Shown here piece after piece: positions 38,501-58,110 of a stretch of DNA of 64,000 bases (its first letter is position 1; each line of letters starts with the position of its first letter). This DNA is from Desulfomonilia bacterium. GTDB lineage: Bacteria; Desulfobacterota; Desulfomonilia; UBA1062. The stretch lies in assembly GCA_050014195.1 (NCBI GenBank), contig JBEKDT010000004.1, positions 96,001 through 160,000 of the forward strand. The letters run 5' to 3'. The position numbers were made by a program, and so were the translations under genes. The notes under the pieces were generated by a model. It had not been told where the DNA came from. It was given only the letters and a program-made list of their open reading frames with translations, and made no database searches.

Positions 38501-38802
38501 GGCAGGCAGTCCATGATGCATAAGCCGAGTGCATCCTTTTCGAACAAAGCGGGCTGTGTGAAACCCGGCAGGATGCGCGAGAACATGTCCAGCACAAAGG
38601 CATTGGGAAAGGGCCAGCTCACGTTCGCGCATATGCCGCTGCCGCGCGCCAGCTCCATGGAGAGCCAGCGCTGCATGCCGCGGCTCTGCACCACGATGAC
38701 CTCTGGGGCCAGCGGCGAAGAGAGCGGCTCGGCCAAGGACGCAGCAAGGGCCTGCGAAAGGACCTCGAGCCGGTTGCTCTCAATGAGTCTCAGGCCTGAC
38801 AA
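35530..38802 (-). CDS. recC: Exodeoxyribonuclease V gamma subunit
   Basis: SNRLEVL, VVQSRGMQRWL, NPCREYW, HSCHSPMREVEVL, PMRSIPFKVICL. TTG start with GGAGG RBS; overlaps the recB start. Confidence 0.95.
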
Positions 38803-38838
38803 CAGACGCCTCCGTGCATGGAATTAAAAAGTGGGGAT

Positions 38839-38847
38839 AGTATAGCA
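38839..38847 (-). promoter_or_regulatory. Putative extended -10 element of recCBD
   Basis: TGCTATACT on the minus strand ~37 nt upstream of recC; retained as TGTTATACT in the duplicate near 47872-47880. Confidence 0.5.
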
Positions 38848-39003
38848 TGGAAGACTCGTTCTGTGGGTGGAGAAATGTGGCAAAAAAGGGGACATTTATT
38901 TTTACTTCACCTATGGTCGTAAGAAATCGGCATTAAGCAATAGGACCGAATTTATACACCGCACTTTTTACGGCACCACTCAGCCATAAGAGCGAAGATA
39001 GGA

Positions 39004-39052
39004 AGATGGGAGTCAGGTCTTGCTTTTTGACTATTCCGTGTGAATCCGGGGA
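39004..39052 (+). repeat. Direct repeat copy 1 (partner 57192-57239)
   Basis: Core CAGGTCTTGCTTTTTGaCTATTCCG matches 57202-57226 at 24/25. Confidence 0.75.
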
Positions 39053-39075
39053 TAAATTGATAAACATCCCCTTTC

Positions 39076-39360
39076 TTATGCTGCACGGCTCAGGCTGATG
39101 CGCATACCTGCCCTGGTCGCCAGAGTGATGAGCATCTCCAGGCTGAACTTCTCCCACTTGCCCCGGACAAGGTCCGATACCCGGGACTGGCTGATGCCGA
39201 GCATCTGAGCTGCCTGGGCCTGCGTGACCTTCTTCGCCTCTATGAGTGTGCGCAGGTCAGCCATTAGATCGGCACGCATCTTCAATATCGCTGCCTCGTC
39301 CGGGGCGAACCCCAGGTCGGTGAATACATTTCCCGAAGATTTCGTTGAGGTCTTTTTCAT
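39076..39360 (-). CDS. XRE-family HTH antitoxin (HigA-like)
   Basis: SSGNVFTDLGF, TQAQAAQMLGISQSRVSDL, KFSLEML. Confidence 0.9.
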   Translation of the reverse strand: MKKTSTKSSGNVFTDLGFAPDEAAILKMRADLMADLRTLIEAKKVTQAQAAQMLGISQSRVSDLVRGKWEKFSLEMLITLATRAGMRISLSRAA

Positions 39361-39363
39361 ATA

Positions 39364-39678
39364 CTACACTCCTATCTGTTTGTATCTCATGCGGGCCAGC
39401 TCTATATCCTTCAGGTTTGTCTTTCTCCCTTTCTTGTGAAACGAGTGCAGAACATAGACAGCATCCGCACGTTTCGCCACGTAGATGATCCGCCATTCTC
39501 CAAGCACATGTATGCGGATCTCCTTCACACCTTTTCCTATTGTCTGCATGGGCTTCCAGTCACTGGGTTCTAAACCACATTGCACGGCGTAGAGCTCAAA
39601 GCCTACAGCCCTACGCACTTCCATGGGAAAATCACGCAGGTTATCAAGGCTTGATCCCATGAACAATAGAGCCTTCAT
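39364..39678 (-). CDS. RelE/ParE family toxin (Gp49/HigB-like)
   Basis: GFELYAVQCG..DWKPM..GVKEIRI..RIIYVAK..YVLHSFHKK; upstream of the HTH gene. Confidence 0.9.
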   Translation of the reverse strand: MKALLFMGSSLDNLRDFPMEVRRAVGFELYAVQCGLEPSDWKPMQTIGKGVKEIRIHVLGEWRIIYVAKRADAVYVLHSFHKKGRKTNLKDIELARMRYKQIGV

Positions 39679-39882
39679 GGGATTATTATATAAGTTTTTA
39701 TATATCTGGCAACATTAATTTCATACGGACAACCAACCCCCTTATGCCTTGGAGTGGAGAATAATATACTGCTATTTTAGGGATTGACAGACGGAAACAA
39801 ATCTGTCTAAAAATGTGCCTCATGTAGTCTTTGTTATGTTTACCCTCGCAAAACTCTTGCGAGACTGAGGAGGTTGTTTCCA

Positions 39883-42800
39883 ATGAACAACACTTGCCGT
39901 GTCAGGACACGTGTCTATTCGTTTGTTCCCAGGCTGGTGTCGGTCTTGTTCCTCATCTTTCTCTTCCTTGTACCGCTGAGCCCGTCAAAGACGAGTGGAA
40001 AATCTGCTGAAATAACCTGCACCCCTGATCCCCATAACGAGATCGCCACCGACAAGAACCTTCCGCTCGGGTGCGAGATGACCCTGAGCAGTTCTTTTTA
40101 CCACGAGATCCAGGGCAATCCCCTTCTGTATGAATGGTACGGACCGTTCTCTCCGAGCACCATATCGGAGCCGGAAGTGTTCATGCCCGAAGGGACTCAT
40201 GCAGTCTCCCTGCTTACCTTTGACGGCGTGCAACGCTCTGCCCCCCACGTCCTCTACATCACGGTCGATCCGGCATTCTCCATTTCCGCCGCTGCAAAGA
40301 AGGGGAAGGTAGTTGTCACGTGGCCCCATGTGCAGGGGGCCACTCGCTTTGACATCTACCGCGCCAAAGAGAGCGACCCTAGCCGATTCGAAAAGATTGC
40401 AGAGCTCCCGGCAGCAACAACCTCCTATACGAATGTAAACCTATGCGATGCAACCTATCTGTATGCCGTGGGTGCGTTGTCAAACAGGCAGTGGCTGTAT
40501 TCTCAGGTCAAGAGCTCTCATCCGTATTTAACATCCCCGATGTGCAATTACCCGCCTGTCATATACTCCGCACCCATAACCAAGGGCATTGTGGGCCTGA
40601 AATACACCTACGACGTGCAGGGGTCAGATCCCTTGGGGGACATGCTCACCTACAGCCTCTTAAGCCCACCGGCGGGCATGAGGATAAACTCCCAGAGCGG
40701 TCTCATCGAATGGACACCTCCTTCCCTGGGAGACTATGAGGTTACGGTCAAGGTGAAGGACTGCAAGGGCTCATACAAGATACAAAAATTCATCATTGAG
40801 GTGGATGAGCTCCCCGACATCAACAGGAACCCCATTGCCGATGCAGGCGGCCCATATGCCGCAGAGGTGGGCCAGCCGATATCTTTTGACGGCTCTTCAT
40901 CCTATGACCCTGACGGCGATCCCCTCCTGTATGCATGGATCTTCGGAGACGGCTCAAGCGGAAACGGGGCCTCTCCGAGCCATGCATATGGTGCTCCCGG
41001 AACATACCAGGTTACGCTCACGGTCTCTGACGGAAGGGGCGGAACCGCGACCGATGCAACCACAGCAAGCATTCAGCAGTGCCTGCCGCCAACAGTAGGC
41101 TTCTCTTCGAACCCGGCGGCCATACGGCAGGGCGAGTCATGCACCTTGCTCTGGACATCCAAGAATGCCTCCACCCTCAGTATCGACCACGGCATCGGAG
41201 ACGTGGGTGCATCGGGAACCATCACAATACAGCCACAGGCCACTACCACCTACACGATCACCGCAACAGGCCGCTGCGGGACGGCTGCAGAGTCTGTCAC
41301 CGTCATTGTCCATTCTCCGCCTGTTGTTCATTTGACCGCTGTCCCGGGGTCCATTGCGGCAGGGCAGACATCTAAGCTCTCCTGGACATCCGAGAATGCG
41401 GATACGGTAACCATCGACCAGGGCATCGGCCCGGTGACGCCGAACGGCTCTCTCGCCGTAGCTCCCACATCTACCACAACCTACACCATTACTGCTTCCG
41501 GGCCCGGAGGGACTGCAACCGATAGTGCAACAATCACGGTATACCAGCCGCCGCATGTAAGCCTGACCTCCCAACCCCAAGCAATCGCCGAAGGCGGGGC
41601 ATCAATACTCACCTGGACATCCGAGAATGCCGACTCTGCCTTCCTGGATAACGGCCTGGGCAATGTCGCCGTGAACGGATCGCTGGCGGTTTCCCCTGCA
41701 GAGACGACAACCTACGCAATAACGGTCCAGGGTCCCGGAGGCACGGCAACAGCCAGTGCTTCAGTAACCGTGCTTCACAAGCCGGCAGTCATCATTGCGG
41801 CCTCACCCGACACCATCGACGCAGGCGAGACCGCCACCCTGACTTGGACTTCCACCAATGCCGATTCCGCATCCCTTGACCAGGGCATAGGGGCCGTGGA
41901 GGTGAACGGCAGCCTGCAGGTGAGCCCATCCGAGACGACCACCTATACCATCACTGCAACAAGCCCCGGAGGCATTGCAACCGCCTCTGTGCCGGTCGGG
42001 GTCAACCACCCGCAGCTGCAAAGAAAGGCCTGCGCATACATCACGAACATGGAGAGCGGTGATGTCACGGTGGTGGATATCTCCACGAACAGTATCATAA
42101 CCCGTATCCCGGTGGGCACGGCACCCTACGGCGTTGCCGTGAGCCCTGACGGCGACCGGGTATATATCGCATGTGGAGGGAGTGACGGCGGGATATATGT
42201 CATTGATACCATTACCAATACGGTGGCAGGCACCATAGAAGGAATATATGCGACCACCCTGGCAGTGAACCCGGATGGATCGATCATCTATGCCGTGTCA
42301 GCCGTTGACGGGACACTCACGGCTATCGATGCACATTCCCATGGGGTCATCGGGGTCGTTCAGACAGGACCGTCGCCTTTCGGGATAGCTGTAAAACCCG
42401 ATGGAACAAGGATCTACATCACATCCATGGAAGATGGCACCATGAGGGTGATCGATGCTGCAACCTTGGCAGTCATAGACACCGTGCAGATTGTATACAC
42501 GGGGAAGCCCCTCTGGGATGTCGAGGTGAGCCCCGACGGGGCATTTGTGTATGTGGTGTCGAGTGATTCATGCCTCCTCGCCGTCATCGACACGAACACG
42601 GATGCTTTCGTGAACTCACATTTTTACATGCCCGAGAGGCATCTCGGAAGATGTTATCTTGCTGTGAGCCCTGATGGAAACCGCATATACCTGAGCATAA
42701 ACAATAGCACCTATTCCGCAGGATCGGTCTATGTCATTGACACACTCTCCCTTGGTGTTGTGAACAGGATTACCGCAGTATCCCCTTCGGACCTGTCATT

Positions 42801-44712
42801 CACCCCGGACGGAACATTCCTTTATGTGCCCGATAGCGGGGCAAACGGCGTCATGGTCATCGATTCCGGGTCAGACTCAGCGGCTGCTTTCCTGGGAGAC
42901 GATTTCAGCCGCCCCACGACCTGCGGCCATTTCATCACGAAACATAGGGAGCGGATTACCGGCAGGATCGTGGCCGATGGCGCGGGGGTCGAGGGAATCA
43001 TGGTCACGCTCACCGATGGCCGCATGACCTGGAGCTGTCCGACCGATGCACAGGGACGCTACATTTTCTATGCACCGCCCGGCAGCTATACCCTTTTCTT
43101 TTCCGGCAGGGGATATGCATTCGCGCAGCAGAACCTGGCAGTGAATGTCAGCGACAGGGAGATATCCATCACGGATACCGAGGTGCTTCTGGGCGTGAAG
43201 ATATGGTCGGAGCCCGGTTCAATAGCATCCGGACGAACGGCACTCCTGCTCTGGAGCTCGATCAAGGCTTCAAGCATCACCATAGACCAGGGCATCGGCA
43301 GTGTGGGAACGAGCGGTTCTTACGCAATATCTCCAAACGAGACCACGACCTATACGATAACCGCTTTTGACGGCCAGGGCAGGACAGTGACTGACCAGGT
43401 GACGGTGACCGTCTTCCCTCAGCCCCAGGTGAATATCAGTGCGGAGCCGCAGGTAATTTTGAAAGGACAGCCTGCCACCCTGTCATGGACGAGCACCAAT
43501 GCGGATACACTTACCTTGGGGCCATACGGATGGAATCTGGAGAACATCGGCTCTATCACGGTATTCCCTCAGGAGACCACGACCTACACCATTACCGCTT
43601 CAGGTCCGGGCGGGATTGCCACCGCCTCTGCCACTGTGACCGTGTATGAGCCGCCCCAGGTCACTATCTCAGCAAACCCCCAGACCATCTATGCAGGTGA
43701 ATCCTCTCTTCTCACCTGGTCCTCTTCCAATGTAGATCATGTCAGCATCGACAACGGCATCGGCAATGTGGAACCCGGCGGCTCAATGACCGTGAACCCC
43801 GCAAAGACCACGACTTATACCATCACCGCATCAGGCCCGGGCGGGGTCGCCGAGGCTTCAGCCACCCTGACCGTGAACAGCATCATCAGCCTCCACATCG
43901 ATTCCCCGGCAGAGGGAGCCCTCATCGACAGGCCGGACATCCTGGTGAAAGGCACCATGACAAACGTATACGGCAATGAGACCGGGGTGACGGTGAATGG
44001 GGTTCCGGCTGTCATTCATGGGGACAGGTTCTTTGTGAATCATGTGCCGCTCTCTCCAGGAGAGAATTCTCTGATAGTGCGGGCCGCCGATGTTCAAGGG
44101 AATGCTTCCGAAGTCGTTATTCCCCTTGATTGCGAGGTTACAGGGCCTTACATCACCCTGTCCGTCAATGATGCCGCGGGTATTTCACCATTCGAGTCAA
44201 TATTGAGGGTGGAGTCCTTCTTCGAGCCTGACAGCCTTACCTTCTCAGATTCCGGTCCCGGACAGATCGAGTATCTTGACGGATCGGATACGAATGAACG
44301 GCTCATAAAAATCCCAAATGCCGGAGTCTATTTCATTACGGCAAGGGTTTATAAAACCGGGGTGCTCTATACAGATACAATAGGGACTGTTGTACATGAC
44401 CGGACAGAACTTGATGGGATGCTCAGGCAGAAGTGGGCAGGCATGCGCACTGCCCTCCTGAATAATGATATTGATACGGCAGTGAAAGACATATCAAGCA
44501 GGACAAAAAATATATACCGGAATGCATTTGGCTATCTCACCGACAGCCAAAGAAGCAGCCTGGTGAATGAAATTGGTGACATCCGGCTCATCAAGATGAG
44601 AGGCACCGGAGTGGAATATGACATCCAGACAACAAGGGATGGTACCCTTTACTCATACATTCTTCTCTTCGATCTGGACGAAGACGGGATGTGGAAGGTC
44701 GCAAACTTTTGA
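39883..44712 (+). CDS. Giant exported repeat protein: FN3/putative Ig, PKD, tandem Ig-like repeats, YVTN/YncE beta-propeller, C-terminal domain
   Basis: Signal peptide; YSL..PPAGMRINSQSGLIEWTP (He_PIG-like); PIADAGGPY..FDGSSSYDPDGD..WIFGDG (PKD); ~7 'L.WTS.NA...IDQGIG...TTTYTITA.GPGG' repeats; AVSPDG repeats. Confidence 0.88.
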   Translation: MNNTCRVRTRVYSFVPRLVSVLFLIFLFLVPLSPSKTSGKSAEITCTPDPHNEIATDKNLPLGCEMTLSSSFYHEIQGNPLLYEWYGPFSPSTISEPEVFMPEGTHAVSLLTFDGVQRSAPHVLYITVDPAFSISAAAKKGKVVVTWPHVQGATRFDIYRAKESDPSRFEKIAELPAATTSYTNVNLCDATYLYAVGALSNRQWLYSQVKSSHPYLTSPMCNYPPVIYSAPITKGIVGLKYTYDVQGSDPLGDMLTYSLLSPPAGMRINSQSGLIEWTPPSLGDYEVTVKVKDCKGSYKIQKFIIEVDELPDINRNPIADAGGPYAAEVGQPISFDGSSSYDPDGDPLLYAWIFGDGSSGNGASPSHAYGAPGTYQVTLTVSDGRGGTATDATTASIQQCLPPTVGFSSNPAAIRQGESCTLLWTSKNASTLSIDHGIGDVGASGTITIQPQATTTYTITATGRCGTAAESVTVIVHSPPVVHLTAVPGSIAAGQTSKLSWTSENADTVTIDQGIGPVTPNGSLAVAPTSTTTYTITASGPGGTATDSATITVYQPPHVSLTSQPQAIAEGGASILTWTSENADSAFLDNGLGNVAVNGSLAVSPAETTTYAITVQGPGGTATASASVTVLHKPAVIIAASPDTIDAGETATLTWTSTNADSASLDQGIGAVEVNGSLQVSPSETTTYTITATSPGGIATASVPVGVNHPQLQRKACAYITNMESGDVTVVDISTNSIITRIPVGTAPYGVAVSPDGDRVYIACGGSDGGIYVIDTITNTVAGTIEGIYATTLAVNPDGSIIYAVSAVDGTLTAIDAHSHGVIGVVQTGPSPFGIAVKPDGTRIYITSMEDGTMRVIDAATLAVIDTVQIVYTGKPLWDVEVSPDGAFVYVVSSDSCLLAVIDTNTDAFVNSHFYMPERHLGRCYLAVSPDGNRIYLSINNSTYSAGSVYVIDTLSLGVVNRITAVSPSDLSFTPDGTFLYVPDSGANGVMVIDSGSDSAAAFLGDDFSRPTTCGHFITKHRERITGRIVADGAGVEGIMVTLTDGRMTWSCPTDAQGRYIFYAPPGSYTLFFSGRGYAFAQQNLAVNVSDREISITDTEVLLGVKIWSEPGSIASGRTALLLWSSIKASSITIDQGIGSVGTSGSYAISPNETTTYTITAFDGQGRTVTDQVTVTVFPQPQVNISAEPQVILKGQPATLSWTSTNADTLTLGPYGWNLENIGSITVFPQETTTYTITASGPGGIATASATVTVYEPPQVTISANPQTIYAGESSLLTWSSSNVDHVSIDNGIGNVEPGGSMTVNPAKTTTYTITASGPGGVAEASATLTVNSIISLHIDSPAEGALIDRPDILVKGTMTNVYGNETGVTVNGVPAVIHGDRFFVNHVPLSPGENSLIVRAADVQGNASEVVIPLDCEVTGPYITLSVNDAAGISPFESILRVESFFEPDSLTFSDSGPGQIEYLDGSDTNERLIKIPNAGVYFITARVYKTGVLYTDTIGTVVHDRTELDGMLRQKWAGMRTALLNNDIDTAVKDISSRTKNIYRNAFGYLTDSQRSSLVNEIGDIRLIKMRGTGVEYDIQTTRDGTLYSYILLFDLDEDGMWKVANF

Positions 44713-44797
44713 ACTATCCCGTTGCGATTGAACATCTGCTAAGGGGTTGTGATGGTATCATTACAGGTACTACAGGGCTTGTTTTGAAAAAGGGGGA

Positions 44798-45547
44798 ATG
44801 GGAATGCTGACAAAAAAGGCATGTCTGATACTGACCATGGCGATGCTTCCTCTCGGTCTTATGGGTGCAGACCTGTTCGGGAATGTGACATTCAGGGGCA
44901 AGGTGATCGATGCAGACACCCTCAAACCCATCGAAGGGGCGGTGGTAGTGGCCGAGTGGGAGAAATGCCACCCAGGGATAGGTGAAGGCTCATTATGTGA
45001 TTTCAAGATGGTTAAAGAGACACTGACAAATGCTTCTGGTGAGTGGAGCATCACAGGGCCACAAGGTGATAGTTTACCTAGTAAGACTCGGGAGATTCTC
45101 GGGTTCATCGTATCATGGACAGCACCGCCTCGTTTTCAGATCTACAAACAAGGGTACTGCAGACTTCACCAGAAACCAGGCGGATTACATGCATATCCAT
45201 ATGTAAATAAAGAAAAGAGGTTGGAAGGGATCGTATTGGTCCGCATGGGTGATACGAAAGAAGAGGAAAATGAATTTATGAAACAATATCTTCTAGAAGG
45301 TTTCGTTCCTTTTATTCCAGTTAAGGATCCGGAGAGGAAGCTTCGGGAGCTGAATTTCGACTTTCGATACCCTCCTGATGTTATGAGTATAAGGGATGTT
45401 TGGGAAAACACTATGTATGATGTAATCGGTTTAAAGAAGGCAGTGACACAAGAAGAAAAGAAGGAAGCGGAAATATTGCCTGCCACTGTAGATCATTGGA
45501 TTTATCTGCCTCTGTTAAGGAAGACAGTTGAAAATAGTATGAAATGA
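44798..45547 (+). CDS. Exported protein with carboxypeptidase-regulatory-like N-terminal domain
   Basis: Signal peptide then FRGKVIDADTLKPIEGAVVVAEW...ETLTNASGEW. Confidence 0.78.
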   Translation: MGMLTKKACLILTMAMLPLGLMGADLFGNVTFRGKVIDADTLKPIEGAVVVAEWEKCHPGIGEGSLCDFKMVKETLTNASGEWSITGPQGDSLPSKTREILGFIVSWTAPPRFQIYKQGYCRLHQKPGGLHAYPYVNKEKRLEGIVLVRMGDTKEEENEFMKQYLLEGFVPFIPVKDPERKLRELNFDFRYPPDVMSIRDVWENTMYDVIGLKKAVTQEEKKEAEILPATVDHWIYLPLLRKTVENSMK

Positions 45548-45572
45548 TTGCTGAAGAGGAGGTCTTGGTGAA

Positions 45573-48228: not shown

Positions 48229-48230
48229 TC

Positions 48231-49378: not shown

Positions 49379-49400
49379 TTAATAAATAACAATAAAAAAT

Positions 49401-50725: not shown

Positions 50726-50746
50726 CAGACGCCTCCGTGCATGGAA

Positions 50747-51625
50747 TTACTTTTGCCAGAACCTTTTTATGATTATCTGCCGGGCATAATCTGCAGATTT
50801 TGGTTTGGCAGGGAACAGGCCCAAGACATTTGTTGGGACACCCTCAGGAAATCTATTAAGAATACAAGCGCCACTGGTACCACACCTCTCAAGCACATTT
50901 GTCCAGACACCCTTGGGTGACATTCGCAATGGTTCAACCCATTTTAATGAAGCGCTTTGCCAATTACTCTTGAACTGGGGATCCCATAAATTATTGTCTT
51001 CGAATAACAATTGTCCAGTCTTGGGATTCACAAATGCAAACTTCGAAGTACCATGTGTTGATGAGTGATAAACCCCGAGAACCGCAACTACACAAATGTT
51101 GTTGTTAGTAAAACTTAAATCACTGAGGATCTTATAAGCATATATCTGGTAGTCGAAAAGCTCCTCAGGTTTACCTGTAAGTAAGGAGAACTCATTTCGA
51201 TTAGTACCCTTAAATGACAATTCGAAAATAAATGGTTGATTAGGATCTTTGGTTAGGATGTCTAGTGATACAACCCCTTTACCTATTTCAATACCATTTG
51301 TCTGAATCAAGATAGGGACTTTGTATGGCTGATATGCTTCACTTAAACCGTTTAGAACATCAATTAAGCTCGACCACTGGAGTGTAGGTTCACCGCCAGT
51401 GAAACGGATGAAAGCCTTACCTTTGTCGTATAGAATACTTCGTGTCCCATCTATTATTTCTTTTGAAGATAATACATGCGAAGGATCATCTGTCTCCATT
51501 GGCCTAGATGCTGGACTCCAGCAAAAGTGGCAACTGAGATTACATCCCGAAAAATCCCACCGGATTTCCTGATACTCTCCATAGAAGAAACTTCCGGGTG
51601 AGTACTTCTTTCTTATCCTGAGCAT
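50747..51625 (-). CDS. Radical SAM protein (COG5014-like), function unknown
   Basis: FFYG...GCNLSCHFCWS, RFTGGEPTL, IQTNG, LSFKGT..EF..LTG; no SPASM domain. Confidence 0.82.
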   Translation of the reverse strand: MLRIRKKYSPGSFFYGEYQEIRWDFSGCNLSCHFCWSPASRPMETDDPSHVLSSKEIIDGTRSILYDKGKAFIRFTGGEPTLQWSSLIDVLNGLSEAYQPYKVPILIQTNGIEIGKGVVSLDILTKDPNQPFIFELSFKGTNRNEFSLLTGKPEELFDYQIYAYKILSDLSFTNNNICVVAVLGVYHSSTHGTSKFAFVNPKTGQLLFEDNNLWDPQFKSNWQSASLKWVEPLRMSPKGVWTNVLERCGTSGACILNRFPEGVPTNVLGLFPAKPKSADYARQIIIKRFWQK

Positions 51626-51736
51626 CCTTTGGATACCTCTTTTTAAAAAGTACTTTATTGTATGGTTAAGGTCTCATTTACTATTTCAGTAGATTCTCTT
51701 TGGCAAAGGTTTGTAAAATTTTTTGGCTAGGAAAAT

Positions 51737-53029
51737 CTAAACTGATACCAACTTGTTTGCTAGAGCAACTGGAATAAGAGAGTTATCATACATGTTACAC
51801 CTGAGTTCAGCGATTAGAGAGAGGATCTCCTCCAAGTGTGGTATGTCTGCTGATCTTGGTTCTGCAAGATAAGAGGTTGCAGGAACAGTTAAAACGTGCA
51901 TTTCTCCACCAGAAGCTCGGTAAAATATTTTCTGGCCGTAATAGGTGTTCTGGCCATAAGATACCCCAGCTTCACCCGGTATGATATACTTACGAATATA
52001 TGAGTCTCCAACTATGAAATATGATCCCTGTTCCATACAATCCTGGATAGCTGCTGCATGCTCGACGAATGCGCCGCTCTTTTCAAGACCTGCTAAACGA
52101 ACTGTTGGACCAGTAGGTCCTCCAGGCTGGCTTAGCAAGTGTGAAATAAGCTCTCTCATAGGTTTGTAAAGGGGCGCCACTAGACCGAAAAAGGCGAGAG
52201 GACCATCTTTGATGAAGAGTATGTTTCGCATTAGGCTTGGCTTGAGGTGTTCAAGAATGTCATGGAATAGATGTACTAAGATGAGCTGCTCAAGCATTGT
52301 CATTAAATAAGAAATTATTCCACCTGCTCCGAGTTCTTCGTCAATGCGCTCATGTAATCTAAAAGTGTCTGTCAGGTATATTGGTTGATTGCATCCAGGG
52401 CATTTTTTATTAGTTGGATCACCATACTTAAAAGTAATATTGTCATGACCACAATTGTATGGGCAGTGAGCTATTGTTTCTTCATAGTTATTGTCTTGTT
52501 TACGCATCCAGCGACGGAAGAGAAACCATTGAAGACTGTCGATAAGCTTTTCACCTTCACCATGTTCCTTAATAAAAAAATCATATATGGTTCGCCGGAT
52601 TGTTGCAGACAGGGACGTTTGATCTTTATGACGAATACCCTTTGTTGGTATAACAAGTGAGTAGCGCTCTATCTTCTTTAGCCGTGCTAGATCTTCTGGG
52701 GCAATAAACCTTTTGCAATCAAGGGATCGTAGGTCTGAAAGCTCAAATAGTAATGGACCGAATGTAAAGAATGTAATCGAAGCTGAAGGATACTCTTCAC
52801 GCACAAAGGTTTCAGTAAAACCACCATCAATTGCAATTACTGCTGAGACTTCAGAAGTATCTACATTGTCAAGAATGGTCAGATAAGGCTCTAAAAACAG
52901 AGAGTCAGGTGCTGAAGGAATGATGCATTGATCAATATAAGCCTGAACATTAGGATTCTTGATTATTTCAACATGAGCGATCTTACTTGCTCGTTCAATT
53001 GGTTTACGGCCCTTTGATGAATATCCCAC
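51737..53029 (-). CDS. nurA: NurA-family nuclease (probable 1-nt frameshift at the extreme C-terminus)
   Basis: IAIDGG, TDTFRLHE, FIKDGPLAFFG, GLEKSGAFVEH, TYYG.K, LIPVALANKLVS; 2 nt downstream of the herA stop. Confidence 0.85.
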   Translation of the reverse strand: MGYSSKGRKPIERASKIAHVEIIKNPNVQAYIDQCIIPSAPDSLFLEPYLTILDNVDTSEVSAVIAIDGGFTETFVREEYPSASITFFTFGPLLFELSDLRSLDCKRFIAPEDLARLKKIERYSLVIPTKGIRHKDQTSLSATIRRTIYDFFIKEHGEGEKLIDSLQWFLFRRWMRKQDNNYEETIAHCPYNCGHDNITFKYGDPTNKKCPGCNQPIYLTDTFRLHERIDEELGAGGIISYLMTMLEQLILVHLFHDILEHLKPSLMRNILFIKDGPLAFFGLVAPLYKPMRELISHLLSQPGGPTGPTVRLAGLEKSGAFVEHAAAIQDCMEQGSYFIVGDSYIRKYIIPGEAGVSYGQNTYYGQKIFYRASGGEMHVLTVPATSYLAEPRSADIPHLEEILSLIAELRCNMYDNSLIPVALANKLVSV

Positions 53030-53031
53030 CT

Positions 53032-54960
53032 TTATTGCCCCTTCAACACTGTGAATCGATCAATTTGAACAGGTACAATGAAGGCATTGGAATATGTCTT
53101 CATACGAATAAAGCCTTTGTCTGTTGTTCTTCGTAAGCTATCAACAAAGTCTTCATAATCGTAATACTTGGCTATCTCTCTTAATTCATCTCTGTTGTTT
53201 AGGTGTGAGACAAACCAGTTCTGGGTGTTCTTTAGCACGTTGGCCGAAATAGAACTTACCTCTTGCGTTGCATAGATCAATCCCAACCTGAGTTTAGCAC
53301 CTTCCTTTGCAATCCTGTTGTATATCAATGTTAAGTCAGCCTCATTCTTTTTAGGAAACAGGTTATGTGCTTCTTCGAAGTACATCTGAATGAAGTTAGC
53401 TGGTTCGTTGTTGATGAATCTTTTCATAGCATCACTGAAGATAGCTCCACATAGGCGATCAGAATACGTTCTCTGAATTTTAGGATCACCTTGCGACAGA
53501 TCAATAATTACAACCTTCCCTTCACGTAATAAATCAACTACCTCCTCTTCATAAGACTTCTGGAGTGTTGAGGTGTGAAGGTTGCGGATAGGTATTAGTT
53601 TTCGAAATCCAGCCTCACTTGCTTGATGTCCAGGAGAAGGTTTTCTTGTAAGGAACCTCATCAAGCTCTGCAAGTCATCATCAGCCCATTCGTGATTGTG
53701 ACTCGTTCGATAATTGCTGAAATATTGGTCGGTATTGTAATTATCCCAAACCCAGGTAAACCAACGTATAGTCTCGTCAACAGTAAGACCATCTTTCGGA
53801 TTCAATCCAACAGCATTGTTGATATGCTCCGTTCCAACAAATTTAATCTTATGTTTTTGAGGAATAGTGAAACCAGCATTGCCAAGTATAGCTTGGTAGC
53901 AGGCTTTACGCCTTCCATACCTTGTTGTTGCACTTACATCCTGTGAATCAGGTTCCTCCCAATTAACATTCAGGAAGGCTTGGGTATAAATTGCCCTGTC
54001 ATCTTGTAGGTTGGCCCTGATCATCTCAAAGCCTTCAAGAAGCTGCTTATAGAAATTGAGCTTCATTACTTTAAAGCCTGGTTTCTCGAGTATGCTGTAT
54101 CTAGTTACATCATCTTTGTAGAGGTTATAAATGGCGGTACCTTCATCTTGCTGATTGTCATTTGCGTACTCACCATTAACATCAAAGATGATCTGACCTA
54201 TCGGCCCAACTGTTTCTGTATCTAACATTTTCTCTAATGTAGTGATTTCAGCTGTGGCCTTGATTACCATCTTCACTGTATTGGATTTACCAGTACGTGT
54301 CATTCCAAATAGAGCTGTTCGTTTTCCTAGGTAGTCAAGTGCAGAAACATAAACTGGCACTGATGGTCCCTGGGTATGACGCTGACTAGATGCATATCGT
54401 ACCTCACCAATCCTCTGATCACCTGGTCCGCCTGGTAAACCAGCACCTTCTCTGAAGTTTACAATATATTCAAGCACTTTCCCAACTGGCTTATAGATCG
54501 AGTAGTTATTCGGACCATAAAAATTATCTACATCTGCACCAAAGCATGTCTTGCCGTCAGATATACGGTAGAAAGATCCTAGAACACGACATTCAAGGCC
54601 TGAAAACTGGAACTCATACCTAGTGTAGCTATCAAGTTGATTAATCGAAGATTCACTCTCTGCACGTTCTTTGTAGTGATCGACCATGGCAGCTACAACA
54701 TCTGAGTCAGAAGGAAGTGTTGTTGGGCCTAATACACGTAGAAGAATCAGTTCAGGATTCTCCTTATCATTATCAAATATGGCTGTGAGAAAAGAACCTG
54801 CCGGAATACCCCCAATCTTCTCTTTCCAATAATCATTTGATAGCACCTTCATTGTGTTAAAGTCGAAGTAAAAGGGGCGGCCAACAAAAGCCTCAGGCTT
54901 GGCTACATCATTGAATAAATCAACAGTTGCAAGCTCCTTTAGTCTTTCCTGAAGTGACAT
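53032..54960 (-). CDS. herA: HerA/DUF87 family ATPase-translocase
   Basis: Walker A FGMTRTGKSN, IFDVNGEY, Walker B FEEAHNLF, RIAKEGAK, YATQE; N-terminal HAS-barrel-like region. Confidence 0.9.
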   Translation of the reverse strand: MSLQERLKELATVDLFNDVAKPEAFVGRPFYFDFNTMKVLSNDYWKEKIGGIPAGSFLTAIFDNDKENPELILLRVLGPTTLPSDSDVVAAMVDHYKERAESESSINQLDSYTRYEFQFSGLECRVLGSFYRISDGKTCFGADVDNFYGPNNYSIYKPVGKVLEYIVNFREGAGLPGGPGDQRIGEVRYASSQRHTQGPSVPVYVSALDYLGKRTALFGMTRTGKSNTVKMVIKATAEITTLEKMLDTETVGPIGQIIFDVNGEYANDNQQDEGTAIYNLYKDDVTRYSILEKPGFKVMKLNFYKQLLEGFEMIRANLQDDRAIYTQAFLNVNWEEPDSQDVSATTRYGRRKACYQAILGNAGFTIPQKHKIKFVGTEHINNAVGLNPKDGLTVDETIRWFTWVWDNYNTDQYFSNYRTSHNHEWADDDLQSLMRFLTRKPSPGHQASEAGFRKLIPIRNLHTSTLQKSYEEEVVDLLREGKVVIIDLSQGDPKIQRTYSDRLCGAIFSDAMKRFINNEPANFIQMYFEEAHNLFPKKNEADLTLIYNRIAKEGAKLRLGLIYATQEVSSISANVLKNTQNWFVSHLNNRDELREIAKYYDYEDFVDSLRRTTDKGFIRMKTYSNAFIVPVQIDRFTVLKGQ

Positions 54961-54975
54961 ATACTTTCATACCTC

Positions 54976-56211
54976 CTATGCCCAGTTCTTCGAGGATGAC
55001 CATTCAATCGGATTTAACCTAGGCAACTTTTTTTTGTTTGTTTTCTGGTGACCCAGGATAAGAATTCTATCAGTCTTTGTGGCCTGTCCACGGGTGTGCT
55101 TCCAGATACGGCTTACCTTATGCTCAGATGGTACTTCATCAACTATAACTGCAATACGATGCCAATCAAGCTTGGATGCAATTTCAGCCCAGACACACTC
55201 AGCAAGATTGGTAATTTTACCAGTACTCTTCTCCATGACATCACCAAAGATTAGACAGAGATATCCATCATCTCGTACGGCCTCCTTAAGTTGCTCTAGA
55301 ACTACATTCATGAATGCAAGGTATTTTCTAAGAGAACTTGTTGAGATAAGCTTTTGATCTACATTCTTAGAATCCTGCTTAAGCATCCATAAGCGTATCC
55401 AATTATATTTTCCATAACGTATAACACTTAAATATGGGGGTGAAGTGAAGACCAGCTTAGCTGGATTATTCCGAAGATCTTTTGGAAAAGGATCTCTCAC
55501 ATCTTGTCTCCAGGCATGTCCTCGTGTCCCATCTTCATTTGGTAAGTGCATCCTAGCCAACTTCGATTCCATTAAATCAAAGACATCAATATAAGGTGGA
55601 ATCAGTCCATTGTCTTTGATGTATCGACGTACGTATCCTGGTGCCATTGAGAATGTGTTTGGCATACTAATCGAAAGACCTCTTGCTGGTCTTCCTGGCT
55701 TATAATTCGCATGCATGATTCCAAGCAGTAGAGCCAATAAGAAACGATCAGTACGATCAGTGCTATTAAGCGAATCACGTAACCATAAGAGTTGCCCAAG
55801 AACAATTGGGTGATAAAGCATTTGGATGTCATCTGGAGCCTCTGCGGGGTTACCAGGGCAACATGCCTTACGGAGTATATGAATTCGGTCAAGAGCCTCT
55901 TTTTGAGAAGGTGGGTTTACCTTTGCACCAGTTAATATGTAAGCTAATGGGTTTGCATCAGAACCAAAGCCAATGCGCCCTAGACGGCATGCCTCCATGG
56001 GGGTTGTACCTCTACCTGAGAATGGATCATAAACGATATCCCCTGCATCAGTCAGCCAGCGGATGAAAACATGTGGAATATGTGGCGGGAACATAGCAAA
56101 ATAAGAGCAAAGAGAGTGCAAGGGATGGCCCCAGCGTCTTGGTGCTATATGCCACTGTTGATTAATATGGCTGGTACATACTTTTAAACTTCGGGCGTAA
56201 TTCTCAGACAA
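54976..56211 (-). CDS. Amino (N4-C/N6-A) DNA methyltransferase, alpha order
   Basis: H..CSYFAMFPP, motif I YDPFSGRGTT, motif IV FTSPPY; TTG start with GGAGG RBS. Confidence 0.88.
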   Translation of the reverse strand: MSENYARSLKVCTSHINQQWHIAPRRWGHPLHSLCSYFAMFPPHIPHVFIRWLTDAGDIVYDPFSGRGTTPMEACRLGRIGFGSDANPLAYILTGAKVNPPSQKEALDRIHILRKACCPGNPAEAPDDIQMLYHPIVLGQLLWLRDSLNSTDRTDRFLLALLLGIMHANYKPGRPARGLSISMPNTFSMAPGYVRRYIKDNGLIPPYIDVFDLMESKLARMHLPNEDGTRGHAWRQDVRDPFPKDLRNNPAKLVFTSPPYLSVIRYGKYNWIRLWMLKQDSKNVDQKLISTSSLRKYLAFMNVVLEQLKEAVRDDGYLCLIFGDVMEKSTGKITNLAECVWAEIASKLDWHRIAVIVDEVPSEHKVSRIWKHTRGQATKTDRILILGHQKTNKKKLPRLNPIEWSSSKNWA

Positions 56212-56374
56212 AATATGACCTCCATACCCTATGCTCCCAACACCATATATAAATTAAGACACATGTTTGGAGTGGCTGAACAGAAAATACATTAATGATC
56301 AGCATAGAAACCCCTCGTTCTATTGAATAACATTACATTTTTCTTTTACTCCGCCGCTAAATAAGCGTCAATGG

Positions 56375-56443
56375 GAGAAATTGGGGACGGGTTCACATTA
56401 AACTTACCCAACTTTTGAAATATGAACCCGTCCTCGATTTCTC
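56375..56443 (-). mobile_element. ~68-bp MITE-like element, copy 1
   Basis: Arms GAGAAATTGGGGACGGGTTCA / TGAACCCGTCCTCGATTTCTC; inverted copy at 58324-58390, partial copy at 61098-61148. Confidence 0.75.
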
Positions 56444-56480
56444 TCCTCTTTCTTTCAGGCAGGGCCTTTGAACAGTTCGG
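56441..56480 (-). pseudogene. Duplicate of the last codons, stop and trailer of the enoyl-CoA hydratase gene at 57352-58110
   Basis: Aligns to 57340-57377 (3 mismatches + 2-nt indel); encodes ELFKGPA-stop versus ELFKDPA-stop. Confidence 0.8.
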
Positions 56481-56492
56481 AATTCCGGGGGA

Positions 56493-56517
56493 ATTCCGGG
56501 GACACAATACTTAATTC
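56493..56517 (+). repeat. 25-bp inverted repeat, right copy
   Basis: ATTCCGGGGACACAATACTTAATTC, preceded by a tandem GAATTCCGGGG duplication. Confidence 0.85.
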
Positions 56518-56652
56518 CGCATAAAATACGGGGACACCATACTAGTTTTTCAGCAATAGATAAATTGGGGCAAGCAAAAATAAAACTGCCCTTTTTTCCT
56601 GTCTCCCTTTATGAATGTTGATTTTTAATTAATAATTAATTATATATTCATT

Positions 56653-56940
56653 ATGATCAGTTTCTCCTGGGACCACCGGAAGAGTGTTGCCAACAGACAG
56701 AAGCATGGTGTGTCCTTTGAAGAAGCCAAGACAGTGTTCTACGACGAGCATGCTGTCAGATACTATGACCCGGATCATTCAGGGGATGAAGACCGGTTCA
56801 TCATGCTGGGGCTCAGCTTGCACTTGCGGACTTTGGTGGTGCACCACAGTTATAGACAGGACAATTCGGTCATCAGGATCATATCGGCAAGGAAGGCCAC
56901 CGCATCGGAGGAAGAAGCCTACTGGAAGGAGCGACCATGA
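56653..56940 (+). CDS. brnT: BrnT-family ribonuclease toxin
   Basis: FSWD..K...N.QKHGVSFEEA..VF.D, DHS.DEDRF..LG, IRIISARKAT. Confidence 0.92.
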   Translation: MISFSWDHRKSVANRQKHGVSFEEAKTVFYDEHAVRYYDPDHSGDEDRFIMLGLSLHLRTLVVHHSYRQDNSVIRIISARKATASEEEAYWKERP

Positions 56941-57167
56941 GAAAAGAATACGATTTCAGCAAAATGAAAGCCCAGAAGAACCCGTACATCAAGGATTTGA
57001 AGACCCAGATAACCATACGCCTCGATAGAGAAACGGTGGAGTATTTCAAGGCGCTGGCCAAGAAAACCGGCATGTCCTACCAGAACCTGATAAACCTATA
57101 CCTGAGGGAATGCGCCCAGGCAAAGATGGAGCCCACCATCAAGTTTCACACCTCAGCGGGGTCATGA
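56937..57167 (+). CDS. brnA: BrnA-family (RHH) antitoxin
   Basis: MRKEYDFS, KNPY, ITIRLD..TVEYFK, YQNLINLYL; ATGA overlap with brnT. Confidence 0.9.
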   Translation: MRKEYDFSKMKAQKNPYIKDLKTQITIRLDRETVEYFKALAKKTGMSYQNLINLYLRECAQAKMEPTIKFHTSAGS

Positions 57168-57191
57168 GATCGGTAACGGCGTATCCTTGGG

Positions 57192-57239
57192 AGATAGGGG
57201 GCAGGTCTTGCTTTTTGCCTATTCCGGCAATTCCGGGGA
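57192..57239 (+). repeat. Direct repeat copy 2 (partner 39004-39052)
   Basis: AGATAGGGGGCAGGTCTTGCTTTTTGCCTATTCCGGCAATTCCGGGGA. Confidence 0.75.
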
Positions 57240-57351
57240 CAGTAGACTACTATTGAAAAAATGGGTCAGAGTCCATCTTCTCCATATCAACCGTGTGCTT
57301 TTCCGAGAAGCTCATCCCTCTCCCTTTCCCCCGGTAAAACTCTCCTTTCTT

Positions 57352-58110
57352 TCATGCAGGGTCTTTGAACAGCTCGGCATAGATCAGCGCCTGGTTGCGG
57401 TTCTCCACACCCAGGGCCTGCTCCAGGCCGCCGATGTCCATATTGATGTTGATTGCCTCCTTGGTCAGGCGCAACCCTGCCGGGTTCTTACCGTTCATGT
57501 TCCTCGCAAATTCCAGTGCGGTGTCCATCAGAATGTCCCGCTCGACCACGCGGCTGACAAACCCGAGACTCATGGCCTCCTGGGCTGACATGAAATTGCC
57601 GGTAAGCATGAATTCATAGGCCCGGCCCGCCCCGATCATGCGGGGCAGGAAGTAGCTGCAGGCCATGTCAGCACCCCCGAAGCCGATATTGATGTAGGCT
57701 GCCGAGAACCGGGCGTCAGAGCTTATGATGCGGATATCAGATGACAGGGCGAAGCTGAACCCGATCCCAGCGGCAGCACCATGAACGATGCAGACGATGA
57801 CCTGCGGAGCCTGCCGCATCCTGAGCATCAGCTTGGCCATACGGACCTGCGCGTGATAGAACTGATGGGAGTTCATCTTATGCCGGATCTCCATGGCCTC
57901 ATTCATGTCGAGTCCCGCGCAGAAACCTTTCTCTCCGTTTCCCTTCAAGATGATCACGTGAGTGTCCACATCGTTTTCACGCTCGGACCAGAAATGCTCC
58001 AGCTCCATCATCATGTGCTGATTTACTGCATTGTACTTCTCCGGACGGTTAAGAGACAGGATTCCGATGCCCGGCTCGCATGTTTCGTATCCGATCGTTT
58101 CGTAGCGCAT
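57352..58110 (-). CDS. Enoyl-CoA hydratase/isomerase family protein
   Basis: LNRPEKYNA, FCAGLDM, HGAAAGIG, SYFLPRMIG. RBS GGGGAGG favours ATG 58110. Confidence 0.92.
   Translation of the reverse strand: MRYETIGYETCEPGIGILSLNRPEKYNAVNQHMMMELEHFWSERENDVDTHVIILKGNGEKGFCAGLDMNEAMEIRHKMNSHQFYHAQVRMAKLMLRMRQAPQVIVCIVHGAAAGIGFSFALSSDIRIISSDARFSAAYINIGFGGADMACSYFLPRMIGAGRAYEFMLTGNFMSAQEAMSLGFVSRVVERDILMDTALEFARNMNGKNPAGLRLTKEAININMDIGGLEQALGVENRNQALIYAELFKDPA

Follow-up and report, generated by a model that had tools for sequence, protein, structure and literature searches.

How are defence hotspots assembled that carry no integrase? The question is stated as open in the available part of the text of PMC10250203, and the accepted model, double crossover in the flanks, leaves no scars by which a single genome would reveal it. 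In a Desulfomonilia bacterium, an 18-kb island between recC and an enoyl-CoA hydratase gene keeps leftover ends of both of its neighbours. The host genome (4.2 Mb, 29 contigs) was assembled from peat or wetland metagenomes. Positions given here refer to the window, that is, the whole stretch of 64,000 nt that was analysed. A first-pass annotation of the window had read the island as alternative alleles of one hotspot that are added in tandem instead of replacing each other. Here we describe the leftover ends, their joints and their relatives, and propose how the interval may have grown.

Organisation of the recC-hydratase interval

The interval, which we take to be a recombination hotspot, holds toxin-antitoxin pairs and defence-type cassettes, and its present order is recC, block A, recC stub 2, block B, recC stub 3, block C, hydratase stub, block D, hydratase. 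The resident recC on the minus strand (35530-38802; Pfam Exonuc_V_gamma 2e-91, RecC_C 1e-47) is full length with 1090 aa and, from its N-terminal translation, starts with TTG at 38802. Its leader or promoter region (38803-38880, minus strand) ends at the natural edge of core and island: in alignments of relatives, part of the genus shares the leader as far as about 38879, and homology to both recC copies of the sister species G003 stops at 38878/38879.

Block A (38881-47803, GC 51.6%), as annotated by Pfam and predicted folds, contains a HigB/HigA-like pair (39076-39678, minus strand) and, on the plus strand, a giant PKD/beta-propeller protein (39874-44712), a predicted beta-sandwich protein of 249 aa (44798-45547) and a predicted zinc-phospholipase-C-like protein of 722 aa (45573-47741). 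A HigBA pair likewise directly adjoins recC in the relative G011. By self-comparison, the stretch at 57189-57239, downstream of the hydratase, recurs at 39001-39052 (plus strand) with 82.7% identity, and this pair encloses the entire island. Pfam, NCBIfam and PADLOC give no match for the 249-aa and 722-aa ORFs, and a sequence profile search of the PDB gave 0 matches. The AlphaFold models of the 722-aa and the 249-aa protein (pLDDT 87.8 and 85.8) resemble zinc phospholipase C chains (probability 0.92-0.99) and prealbumin-like beta-sandwiches, respectively, with weak TM-scores (0.2-0.37 for zinc phospholipase C). A hidden recombinase was considered for these two ORFs and dismissed, there being no recombinase fold among the structural matches.

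Stub 2 (47804-47913, minus strand; self-BLAST and alignment) comprises the first 33 coding nt of recC and the full 78-nt leader. Behind it, block B (47914-50603, plus strand) encodes HicB (48019-48228), HicA (48231-48464), a cyclase-like protein (48740-49378) and a radical SAM/SPASM protein (49401-50474), all on the plus strand and assigned by Pfam; the block also carries a match to NCBIfam TIGR04084 under the family cut-off, and a hairpin search places a hairpin at 50541-50602. Stub 3 (50604-50749, minus strand; self-BLAST and codon comparison) holds the first 122 coding nt of recC with an open frame and 24 nt of leader. Block C (50747-56442, minus strand), annotated by Pfam and PADLOC, consists of genes for a radical SAM protein (50747-51625), a NurA-like protein (51737-53029; an Atlas lead also pointed to NurA clusters), HerA (53032-54960) and an N6/N4 DNA methyltransferase (54976-56211), all on the minus strand, followed by a hairpin (56375-56443). 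Blocks B and C, with GC contents of 35.6% and 41.1% in a genome of 50.2%, are foreign in composition.

The hydratase stub (56443-56483, minus strand; self-comparison) retains the last 26 coding nt, the stop codon and 12 nt past the stop. Block D (56484-57339, plus strand) shows short ATTCCGGGGACA-type motifs in a motif search (56479-56553), a BrnT toxin gene (56653-56940, plus strand; Pfam BrnT 1.5e-26) and an overlapping 76-aa ORF (56937-57167, plus strand), a putative partner of BrnT. The BrnT region is 94.8% identical in the island of the relative G002. The resident enoyl-CoA hydratase (57352-58245, minus strand; Pfam ECH_1 5e-43) is 93.7% identical to the copy of G003, where it is syntenic with recC.

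Copies, edges and joints of the gene ends

Self-BLAST bore out the earlier report that the recC 5' end occurs three times in one orientation (38681-38880, 47804-47913 and 50604-50749). Relative to the resident gene, copy 2 is 86.5% identical over 111 nt (E 6e-31) and copy 3 is 91.8% identical over 146 nt (E 2e-55); these three matches, all at this locus, are the only ones in the 4.2-Mb genome. The hydratase 3' end (57340-57380) is indeed repeated in direct orientation at 56441-56483, with 35/41 identical positions (E 1.7e-6 within a 23.5-kb region). As had also been seen, the stop codon of the radical SAM gene at 50747-51625 (minus strand) is the last triplet of the copied recC leader.

Each of the stubs combines a natural edge with a truncating joint. 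In stub 2 the left edge is a novel joint and the right edge is the natural leader end, the position common to the resident recC and both G003 copies. The left edge of stub 3 and the right edge of the hydratase stub are novel joints, and a terminator-like hairpin lies on the left of the hydratase stub, downstream of the stop codon. At the inner joints the joined sequences have no k-mer in common. The truncation points in recC are unequal, namely nt 33 in stub 2, nt 122 in stub 3 and nt 188 in the stub of G003, which argues against one attachment site. An extension of stub 2 further into recC was also tried and rejected: local alignment scored 12, where the null gave 8.5 +/- 1.6 and 19/500 shuffles reached this score, and no significant recC homology was found left of stub 2. 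The same pattern appears at both flanks, in mirror image.

A CGG next to a palindromic repeat had been described for every breakpoint, which does not hold. CGG or CCGG occurs at the three truncating joints only (C/CGG at 50604, C/CCGG at 47804 and AAT/TCCGG at 56483/4, the slash marking the joint), and the natural edges at 47913, 50749 and 56443 are without CGG. Counting the equivalent joint of the G003 stub (AAAGA/CAGCTG), which has none, the motif is found at 3/4 truncating joints. Hairpins adjoin two of the six block edges (50541-50602 and 56375-56443), and no inverted repeat was found left of 47804. A genome-wide REP family was ruled out as the source of these repeats, their exact copies numbering 2, 2 and 3 genome-wide, all at this locus. 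The palindromes are local terminator-like hairpins.

Divergence of the gene ends

Concerning copy 3, our count agrees with the previous one: 8 of its 12 differences from the resident are synonymous and 4 non-synonymous. All 12 fall in its 122 coding nt, and 27% synonymous changes are expected at random (P = 0.005). For the hydratase stub, the reported two synonymous changes out of three stand only if a change at the joint itself is set aside; the full count is two synonymous and two non-synonymous. Stub 2 is identical to the resident in its 33 coding nt and diverged in its leader. The stub of G003 also keeps an open frame; compared with the intact recC of that species, 13 synonymous and 8 non-synonymous differences were counted over 186 nt (P = 4e-4).

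The fragments therefore represent orthologous alleles and not decayed duplicates, as the first-pass annotation had it, given the synonymous bias and the closer relationship of copy 3 to the recC of the sister species (6 mismatches of 146, 95.9%) than to the resident (12 mismatches, 91.8%). Judged by codon pattern, the divergence of the stubs accrued under selection. An intact orthologue thus fits copy 3 better than the resident recC does, and the closer foreign match is convincing for this copy only. The best match of copy 2 is the recC of G001 (88.8%, against 86.5% for the resident), and the G001 sequence past the leader continues weakly into block B. The hydratase stub matches G003 at 37/41 and the resident at 35/41, the resident itself matching G003 at 38/41. 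A tree of the 146-nt segment gave supports of 31-39%. A core of 33-38 nt, which is also the most conserved part of the recC start, is present in all recC copies with a diversity of 0.055, three times lower than the 0.164 of the next 89 nt. Perfect identity extends over 38 nt between copies 1 and 2, and over 29 plus 27 nt between copies 1 and 3.

Contiguity of the array

Seven loci from four metagenome contigs are 99.95-100% identical to the window across the 47.8- and 50.6-kb junctions. These four contigs were separately assembled, measure 15.5-173 kb and keep the same order. In Logan contigs of four runs the depth is flat over flanks and blocks (14.1/14.3/14.5/13.7 in X5, 23.7/20.9/21.9/21.2 in X9 and 31.2/33.7/31.1-31.8/30.7 in X14). 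The Logan contigs are broken only in the shared 29-38-nt core, and the core unitigs have about twice the depth. Missing reads or a coverage step at the junctions had been named as evidence that would count against the array; the junctions are spanned and there is no step in depth. The array is a single-copy tandem and not a co-assembly artefact. Apart from a hairpin self-match, no deletion or circle joint was found in the contigs of the four runs; since contigs drop rare variants, this says nothing on rare excision.

Recombinases and entry functions

No recombinase is encoded in cis, as had been proposed, neither of the tyrosine nor of the serine type: in a six-frame search, PF00589 matched 16 times and PF00239 three times in the genome, with 0 matches of either on this contig. 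In the relatives G002, G003, G007, G014 and G008, none of the PF00589 matches lies on the recC contig. Neither a tRNA nor an Rfam match was found. ComEC and DprA are present and are uninformative, as control genomes match in 10-11/14, and a gene search did not find Ku.

Relatives of the locus

Among 12 genomes of the genus with a match to the recC 5' end, nine have a single full match, the state of an empty site. G007 and G009 each have one extra 32-nt match elsewhere. Two copies are found on different contigs in G012 and on one contig in G003. The latter, a sister species, carries a recC stub of its own that shows this signature too. The radical SAM gene of block C is absent from the 51 other genomes of the order. 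A metagenome scan with the recC core pattern returned 14 stretches, seven from the same strain and seven from diverged relatives with other cassettes. The short alleles in L037 and L044 read recC, 1.1 kb, BrnT; block B or C as the sole allele occurs in none of the 14. An intermediate in which recC, block C and the hydratase form a single allele on one contig was not found among the genomes of the order and the metagenome stretches, and neither were the parental sequences of the joints.

At least five other integrase-free gene-end stubs exist in the genome, including those of asnB, an Mrr gene and an HGD-D gene. The MTase-HerA-NurA-like trio is conserved in other phyla, where direct repeats of 72-265 nt flank 4/25 loci and one such repeat pair spans the start of the downstream gene.

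Discussion

The notion that alternative alleles of one recC-hydratase hotspot are kept in tandem is supported by our analysis. We consider it an even call that the interval became longer as foreign alleles of this locus were acquired one after another, each in a one-ended event. What follows on the sequence of these events, on how the DNA entered and on the illegitimate joining step is inferred. DNA of a related lineage would pair homologously with a conserved flank, recBC on the left or the hydratase/acyl-CoA operon on the right, and would run through the donor gene end and leader into the donor cassette. The far, non-homologous end of the donor would then be joined illegitimately within the terminal 30-190 nt of the resident gene copy. 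The donor would thereby provide a complete working gene end, and the resident end with everything behind it would be displaced outward and persist as a stub. The present order would result if this happened twice on the recC side and once on the hydratase side. Block C with its two stubs would be the oldest allele, trimmed by independent one-sided events on the left and right; this is simpler than the cassette carrying both flanks of the first-pass annotation, which is unnecessary. The island has a conserved anchor, with the older ends arrayed outward of it as tandem copies of one orientation, and these ends are diverged functional alleles. Against this proposal stand the lack of an intermediate in the genomes and stretches searched, the low supports in the tree of the 146-nt segment, a closer foreign match that convinces for copy 3 only, the reported rarity of homology-facilitated illegitimate recombination (PMC5361080), the failure to find Ku, and the conserved 33-38-nt core, which is also explicable by an attachment site.

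Chimeric co-assembly of the alleles of several strains into one contig is barely credible. The 29 contigs do come from metagenomes, k=31 contigs do break at the shared core, and loose ends at 38903 and 56524 represent other alleles that coexist in the samples. Yet depth is equal in flanks and all blocks at absolute depths of 7 to 31 in the four runs, a twofold depth of the core unitigs is expected for repeats inside one genome, the four separate contigs keep the order, and the inner joints, in which a cassette end is fused to recC nt 33 or nt 122, belong to no natural single allele. Very improbable, too, is a local duplication of the gene ends with neutral decay and later insertion of cassettes between the copies, an origin that would suit repeats which are local and unique to the locus. 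It is contradicted by synonymous-biased differences and open frames in two species, by the affinity of copy 3 to the gene of another species and by a divergence of 8-14%, which is a between-species distance.

Two further explanations accept foreign DNA and differ in how it was joined. In a Campbell-type insertion, a circularised donor with a recC 5' end and a cassette would enter by a single RecA crossover in 110-190 nt of homology, which is thereby duplicated. The product would have the same topology as in one-ended acquisition, with one natural and one truncated edge and the newest block nearest to the gene, and the identical stretches shared by copy 1 with copies 2 and 3 could support rare crossovers; for RM units between long direct repeats, amplification and release through these repeats has been suggested, according to the available text of PMC2853133. 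Still, we hold this route to be rather unlikely: the homology on the hydratase side is 41 nt only, no deletion or circle joint is seen in the contigs of the four runs, though contigs drop rare variants, and the circularisation itself would need illegitimate joining, so that the model is not simpler. If it were true, RecA could excise cassettes through the stubs and integrate them again, and the locus would be a true recombinase-free counterpart of the integron. Clearly less probable is site-specific tandem accretion of decayed CIME-like elements with an att site in the first 33 nt of recC, an integrase in trans and the stubs as attL/attR. Gene-end direct repeats in tandem and a highly conserved core in all copies would fit, and such arrays arise by CIME-IME accretion (PMC5704250, available part). 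No integrase or remnant is found on this contig or on the recC contigs of five relatives, however, and inner edges at nt 33, 122 and 188 leave no common arm. Moreover, stub 3 extends past the core towards the gene body by 89 nt of recC coding sequence under selection, which an element has no reason to carry; the leader homology stops at the natural core edge; and the hydratase end and the other stubs of the genome would call for a second site unrelated to the first.

The first-pass annotation knew of no description of such an arrangement. This was wrong in kind, as the same architecture is reported for other gene classes in the available parts of PMC2853133 and PMC5361080. Like the locus described here, the T6SS effector-immunity arrays of V. 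cholerae have a constant anchor, new modules beside it and older ones shifted outward with a gene-end remnant, in tandem, in the same orientation and without an integrase (PMC5361080, available part). For polymorphic-toxin arrays this text describes sequential displacement, draws an explicit comparison with integrons and proposes homology-facilitated illegitimate recombination, reported there as rare, for arrays that are architecturally identical. There, as far as that text goes, the stub belongs to the toxin gene and retention occurs via selection for immunity genes, whereas here the stubs are housekeeping gene ends, the cargo consists of TA, defence and other cassettes, and displacement occurs at both flanks. 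A non-exhaustive literature search of main texts found no description of displaced housekeeping-gene stubs at a defence hotspot. The displacement of Rhs C-termini and orphan CdiA-CT modules reportedly belongs to the same class of displacement arrays.

Insertion with long target duplication is another likeness. As given in the available part of PMC2853133 (Furuta 2010), RM units of <20 kb without mobility genes are inserted, mostly in competent species, between direct repeats of 46-420 bp, which often span translation starts or stops. The blocks here measure 0.9-9 kb, the repeats 41-146 nt, there is no recombinase, and block C has a DNA methyltransferase. An earlier report of this kind of insertion is said to be that of Nobusato in 2000. 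The repeats of RM units are nearly identical to each other (e.g. 417/423 or 44/46; PMC2853133, available part), as befits a duplication that arises upon insertion, whereas ours are 86-92% identical with a synonymous bias, which points to alleles from different lineages, stacked three deep.

In integrase-free defence hotspots with conserved core flanks, a variable, defence-rich island likewise lies beside a recombination or repair gene, and such genes are over-represented at their flanks (PMC5635113 and PMC10250203, available parts). According to these texts, alleles are replaced there by double crossover without scars, but here they accumulate and stubs remain. CIME/ICE accretion resembles our locus in its gene-end direct repeats, here three recC 5' and two hydratase 3' copies, and differs from it in that our locus lacks any integrase or remnant, its repeat edges vary and its homology covers the natural promoter region. 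In an integron or CALIN, too, units accrete in order next to a fixed point and push the older ones back, and chromosomal integrons commonly contain TA cassettes. Our locus has no IntI, probably no attC-type site at cassette ends, and multi-gene blocks of 0.9-9 kb on both strands; a search for attC-type palindromes gave hairpins, local terminator-like copies, at 2/6 block edges and no match in Rfam. With no shared cassette-end site, variable truncation points and local palindromes, the term integron-like, as used before, is an analogy and not a mechanism.

Scars of the kind found here show a serial addition, on either side, of alleles that stem from different species-level lineages, and they suggest the order of events. 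A tentative extension, on the doubtful side, is that recombinase-free accretion generally builds core defence hotspots free of mobile genetic elements: one-ended entry would stack alleles, and the stubs would be a fossil record of order and donors as well as portable homology arms for RecA-mediated excision, loss or interspecies movement of blocks, a host-recombination analogue of the integron. This extension draws on recC, at least five other genes of this genome, the sister species and the MTase-HerA-NurA-like cassette in other phyla. The signature can be searched for genome-wide as a diverged, synonymous-biased gene-end copy that is oriented like the gene, lies within about 20 kb of it and comes with no recombinase. 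If general, it could tell when and from where uncultivated bacteria received defence genes and could explain how several systems accumulate at one hotspot.

Results

Gene-end stubs between the blocks of the island

The window corresponds to C4:96001-160000 in a genome of 29 contigs and 4.2 Mb. On it recB (31847-35536, minus strand) and the resident recC (35530-38802, minus strand) lie 18.5 kb to the left of the resident enoyl-CoA hydratase gene (57352-58245, minus strand) and the acyl-CoA dehydrogenase gene next to it, with four blocks in between. Block A (38881-47803) contains a HigBA-like pair, the gene for a PKD/beta-propeller protein of 1612 aa and two paired genes with products of 249 and 722 aa. 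In block B (47914-50603) HicBA is accompanied by genes for a cyclase-like protein and a radical SAM/SPASM enzyme. On the minus strand, block C (50750-56442) has a radical SAM gene and genes for a NurA-like protein, for HerA and for a DNA methyltransferase, and block D (56484-57339) consists of BrnT and a small ORF overlapping it. GC content is 51.6% in A, 35.6% in B and 41.1% in C (50.2% genome-wide). The recBC operon (31847-38802) has 62.7% GC against 50-56% in the adjoining genes, yet its synteny is kept across the genus. The entire island is enclosed by a pair of 82.7% identical segments (39001-39052 and 57189-57239).

Leftover gene ends (stubs) are found within the island. Stub 2 (47804-47913) matches 38770-38880 at 86.5% identity and comprises the first 33 nt of recC plus a 78-nt leader. 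Stub 3 (50604-50749) matches 38681-38826 at 91.8% and comprises the recC coding sequence up to nt 122 together with 24 nt of leader; the stop codon of the radical SAM gene is the final triplet of the copied leader, as the first-pass annotation had noticed. The hydratase stub (56441-56483) matches 57340-57380 with 35 of 41 positions identical, covering the final 26 nt of coding sequence, the stop codon and 12 nt beyond it. Self-BLAST within the 23.5-kb region gave E values of 6e-31 (stub 2), 2e-55 (stub 3) and 1.7e-6 (hydratase stub), and a genome search revealed no further recC copies elsewhere in the 4.2 Mb. The codon count reported earlier for stub 3 is exact, with eight synonymous and four non-synonymous differences, all within the coding part (P = 0.005 against 27% synonymous expected at random). 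The initial observation as a whole is largely borne out.

Contiguity of the array

An assembly in which the alleles of several strains had been joined would mimic such an array; in that case the block depths would add up to the depth of the flank, in ratios that depend on the sample. Neither was observed. Logan contigs of four runs, not all independent since some may be the source of the genome, were placed on 38400-58300. Depths for the recC flank, A, B and C-D-hydratase were 14.1, 14.3, 14.5 and 13.7 in run X5, 23.7, 20.9, 21.9 and 21.2 in X9, and 31.2, 33.7, 31.1-31.8 and 30.7 in X14. Contig breaks at k=31 were confined to the 29-38-nt exact core common to the copies, whose unitigs had about twofold depth, and the hydratase-stub junction was crossed without mismatch by one contig in each run. 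A metagenome search with a pattern from the shared recC core matched 14 stretches. Seven of the 14, located on four contigs with lengths of 15.5-173 kb, equal the window at 99.95-100% and run straight across the 47.8- and 50.6-kb junctions. Unspanned junctions or depth steps, named beforehand as grounds for rejecting the array, did not appear: both joints are spanned and depth is level. An assembly artefact is therefore excluded. Of the words sampled from 47500-57450, at least 86% are present in each of at least 24 peat or wetland runs. Further contigs in each of the four runs follow the window up to 38903 or from 56524 and part from it there; other alleles of the hotspot therefore coexist in these communities.

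Block edges

In relatives the alignable conserved region upstream of recC stops at about 38879, and this leader end is common to the resident recC, stub 2 and both copies of the sister species G003. HigBA stands directly behind the recC leader in the related genome G011, as in block A, and the post-leader sequence of G001 shows weak continuity with the beginning of block B. Each stub therefore has the natural gene-to-island boundary as its outer edge. The inner edges, at recC nt 33, 122 or 188, are novel joints to the next block's end. In the hydratase stub the arrangement is mirrored, with the natural side left and the novel joint right. A hairpin adjoining it on the left duplicates the hairpin found downstream of the dehydrogenase gene and would be the terminator of the stub; the right joint lies 26 nt upstream of the stop codon, onto a copy of a ATTCCGGGGACA-type motif.

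A CGG next to a palindrome had been proposed for every breakpoint. This does not hold: CGG or CCGG occurs only at the three truncating joints, and neither the three natural edges nor the corresponding G003 joint has it. Hairpins adjoin two of the six block edges, and the supposed family of repeats does not extend beyond this locus. The short motif ATTCCGGGGACA, followed by ATAC-type sequence, lies at 56479-56553, 57226-57241, 48492-48516 and 39040-39052, and in the G003 locus (L024) at 5712-5811, 9054-9119 and 11176-11209. It recurs at block edges in this island and in islands of relatives, with six exact copies in the genome, three of them at this island.

Origin of the stubs and the sister species

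Copy 3 (stub 3) has 6 mismatches in 146 nt to the intact recC of G003 and 12 to the resident gene. This agrees with the expectation that the fragments resemble intact orthologues more than the resident genes; for the other two stubs the agreement is weak. Copy 2 (stub 2) is 88.8% identical to G001 recC and 86.5% to the resident gene, and the hydratase stub matches G003 at 37 of 41 positions and the resident at 35, a weak preference because the resident itself matches G003 at 38 of 41. A tree of the 146-nt recC segment gave no resolved branching. By these comparisons the stubs are foreign or older alleles. The tandem retention of foreign alleles proposed at the outset was correctly recognised, diverged recC and hydratase ends being kept between the blocks.

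In G003 a further recC 5' end, made up of 188 coding nt and the leader, lies 1.9 kb from the functional recC, in the order functional recC, methyltransferase, recC stub, AAA_21/DUF4435 pair, HigBA, hydratase. This stub retains an open frame, and of its differences from G003 recC 13 are synonymous and 8 non-synonymous (P = 4e-4). G003 shows the architecture independently. The AAA_21/AAA_15 ATPase and DUF4435 pair between the G003 recC stub and HigBA (L024, contig C13, 3507-5662) presumably resembles a PARIS-type defence pair. At the start of this contig, inside recC (L024 1-196), three successive matches to about 50 nt of the window recC (37680-37731) may be either a tandem repeat inside G003 recC or an assembly end effect. 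In G004 (L029, contig C135, 838-1103) two copies of the hydratase downstream region stand 178 nt apart and enclose almost nothing; this could be a stub that is empty or has lost its cargo. Isolated hydratase 3' fragments of about 90% identity are present in G006 (115 nt) and G009 (64 nt).

Recombinases and cargo

Six-frame searches found 16 tyrosine and 3 serine recombinase matches in the genome and none on this contig, confirming the supposed absence of a recombinase in cis. The recC contigs of five relatives likewise had no recombinase match, and neither tRNA genes nor Rfam matches were found at the locus. The 249-aa and 722-aa ORFs of block A (44798-47741), a conserved pair with homologues on contigs of matching lengths, were considered as hidden recombinases and rejected on their confident models. 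For the 722-aa protein a zinc-phospholipase-C-like helical domain followed by Ig-like sandwiches is predicted, with invariant H32, E99, D100, H109, H187, D191, H197 and H203; for the 249-aa protein, a prealbumin-like beta-sandwich with an N-terminal helix.

Relatives of the block C HerA (52-78% identity) occur in many phyla. Methyltransferase, HerA and NurA-like protein (430 aa here; cassette at 51737-56211) are found together in 26 of 38 loci (L055-L092), in an order kept across Gemmatimonadota, Myxococcota, Acidobacteriota, Actinomycetota, Chloroflexota and others. The radical SAM gene is present in 0 of 38 and is not part of the module. PADLOC labels the cassette by generic HerA and methyltransferase models only, and the trio seems to be a defence-type module as yet without a name. 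In four of the 25 loci with long flanks it is enclosed by direct repeats of 72-265 nt; in L069 a 131-nt repeat (91.6%) includes the first 34 nt of the subtilase gene that lies downstream, together with its upstream region.

When the whole genome was compared with itself in windows, 148 pairs of local direct repeats emerged, and stubs were sought among those with at least 78% identity. An asnB 5' stub (first 301 nt, 88.7%) lies 1.5 kb away from its gene with a TylF-type methyltransferase between (C9:66479-68345), and a 3' stub of an Mrr-type endonuclease gene (239 nt, 94.6%) is separated by a Fic gene (C15:68860-70879). Further 3' stubs belong to an HGD-D dehydratase (C21:21884-24315) and a metallophosphoesterase (C5:178712-180112), and a 304-nt repeat (98%) surrounds a 14-kb chemotaxis/two-component signalling block (C6:137399-152357). 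These repeats are in direct orientation with 88-98% identity, and no recombinase was found on the five stretches.

Discussion

The simplest account of the array is serial one-ended homologous and illegitimate recombination, to which we give about an even chance of having built it. Incoming DNA would pair with a conserved flank and continue via the donor's own gene end and leader into the donor cassette. At its far end an illegitimate joint would form within the terminal part of the resident gene, shifting that gene end and everything behind it outward; since the donor supplies a complete gene end, nothing would be lost. Three events, two on the left and one on the right, would suffice to give the array. 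The 'miniature locus' of stub 3, block C and hydratase stub would be the oldest allele, so that no cassette carrying both flanks would be required. Integration of a circularised fragment by a single, Campbell-type crossover would yield an identical product; we consider it less likely. Site-specific accretion at an attachment site is disfavoured, as the inner edges vary, selected coding sequence sits on the gene-body side of the core and a mirror-image event took place at a second gene, the hydratase. Its single supporting point is a shared core three times less diverse than the adjacent sequence: across the 5' ends of eight resident genes of the genus and of the G003 stub, nine in all, diversity is 0.055 in the first 33 nt of recC (38770-38802) and 0.164 in the next 89 nt, with the same trend at synonymous sites. 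Translation-initiation constraint or frequent crossover at the island edge could explain this equally well as a recognition site.

Contrary to what had been supposed, the locus is not a new category of arrangement. Furuta et al. describe restriction-modification units inserted 'with long target duplication', with direct repeats of 46-420 bp that often cover a start or stop codon, in mostly competent species and with mobility genes absent (PMC2853133). Kirchberger et al. report sequentially displaced T6SS effector-immunity modules, for which they suggest homology-facilitated illegitimate recombination; they also compare them to integrons and cite the same idea for Rhs loci (PMC5361080). According to Oliveira et al., hotspots free of mobile genetic elements recombine at flanking core genes, and recombination and repair genes are over-represented among hotspot neighbours (PMC5635113); Johnson et al. 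treat the assembly of core defence hotspots as unsettled (PMC10250203). The present locus unites features of long-target-duplication units, sequential displacement arrays and hotspots free of mobile elements. It is a defence and toxin-antitoxin hotspot at recC in which alleles are stacked instead of replaced, so that on either side diverged ends of housekeeping genes remain as stubs.
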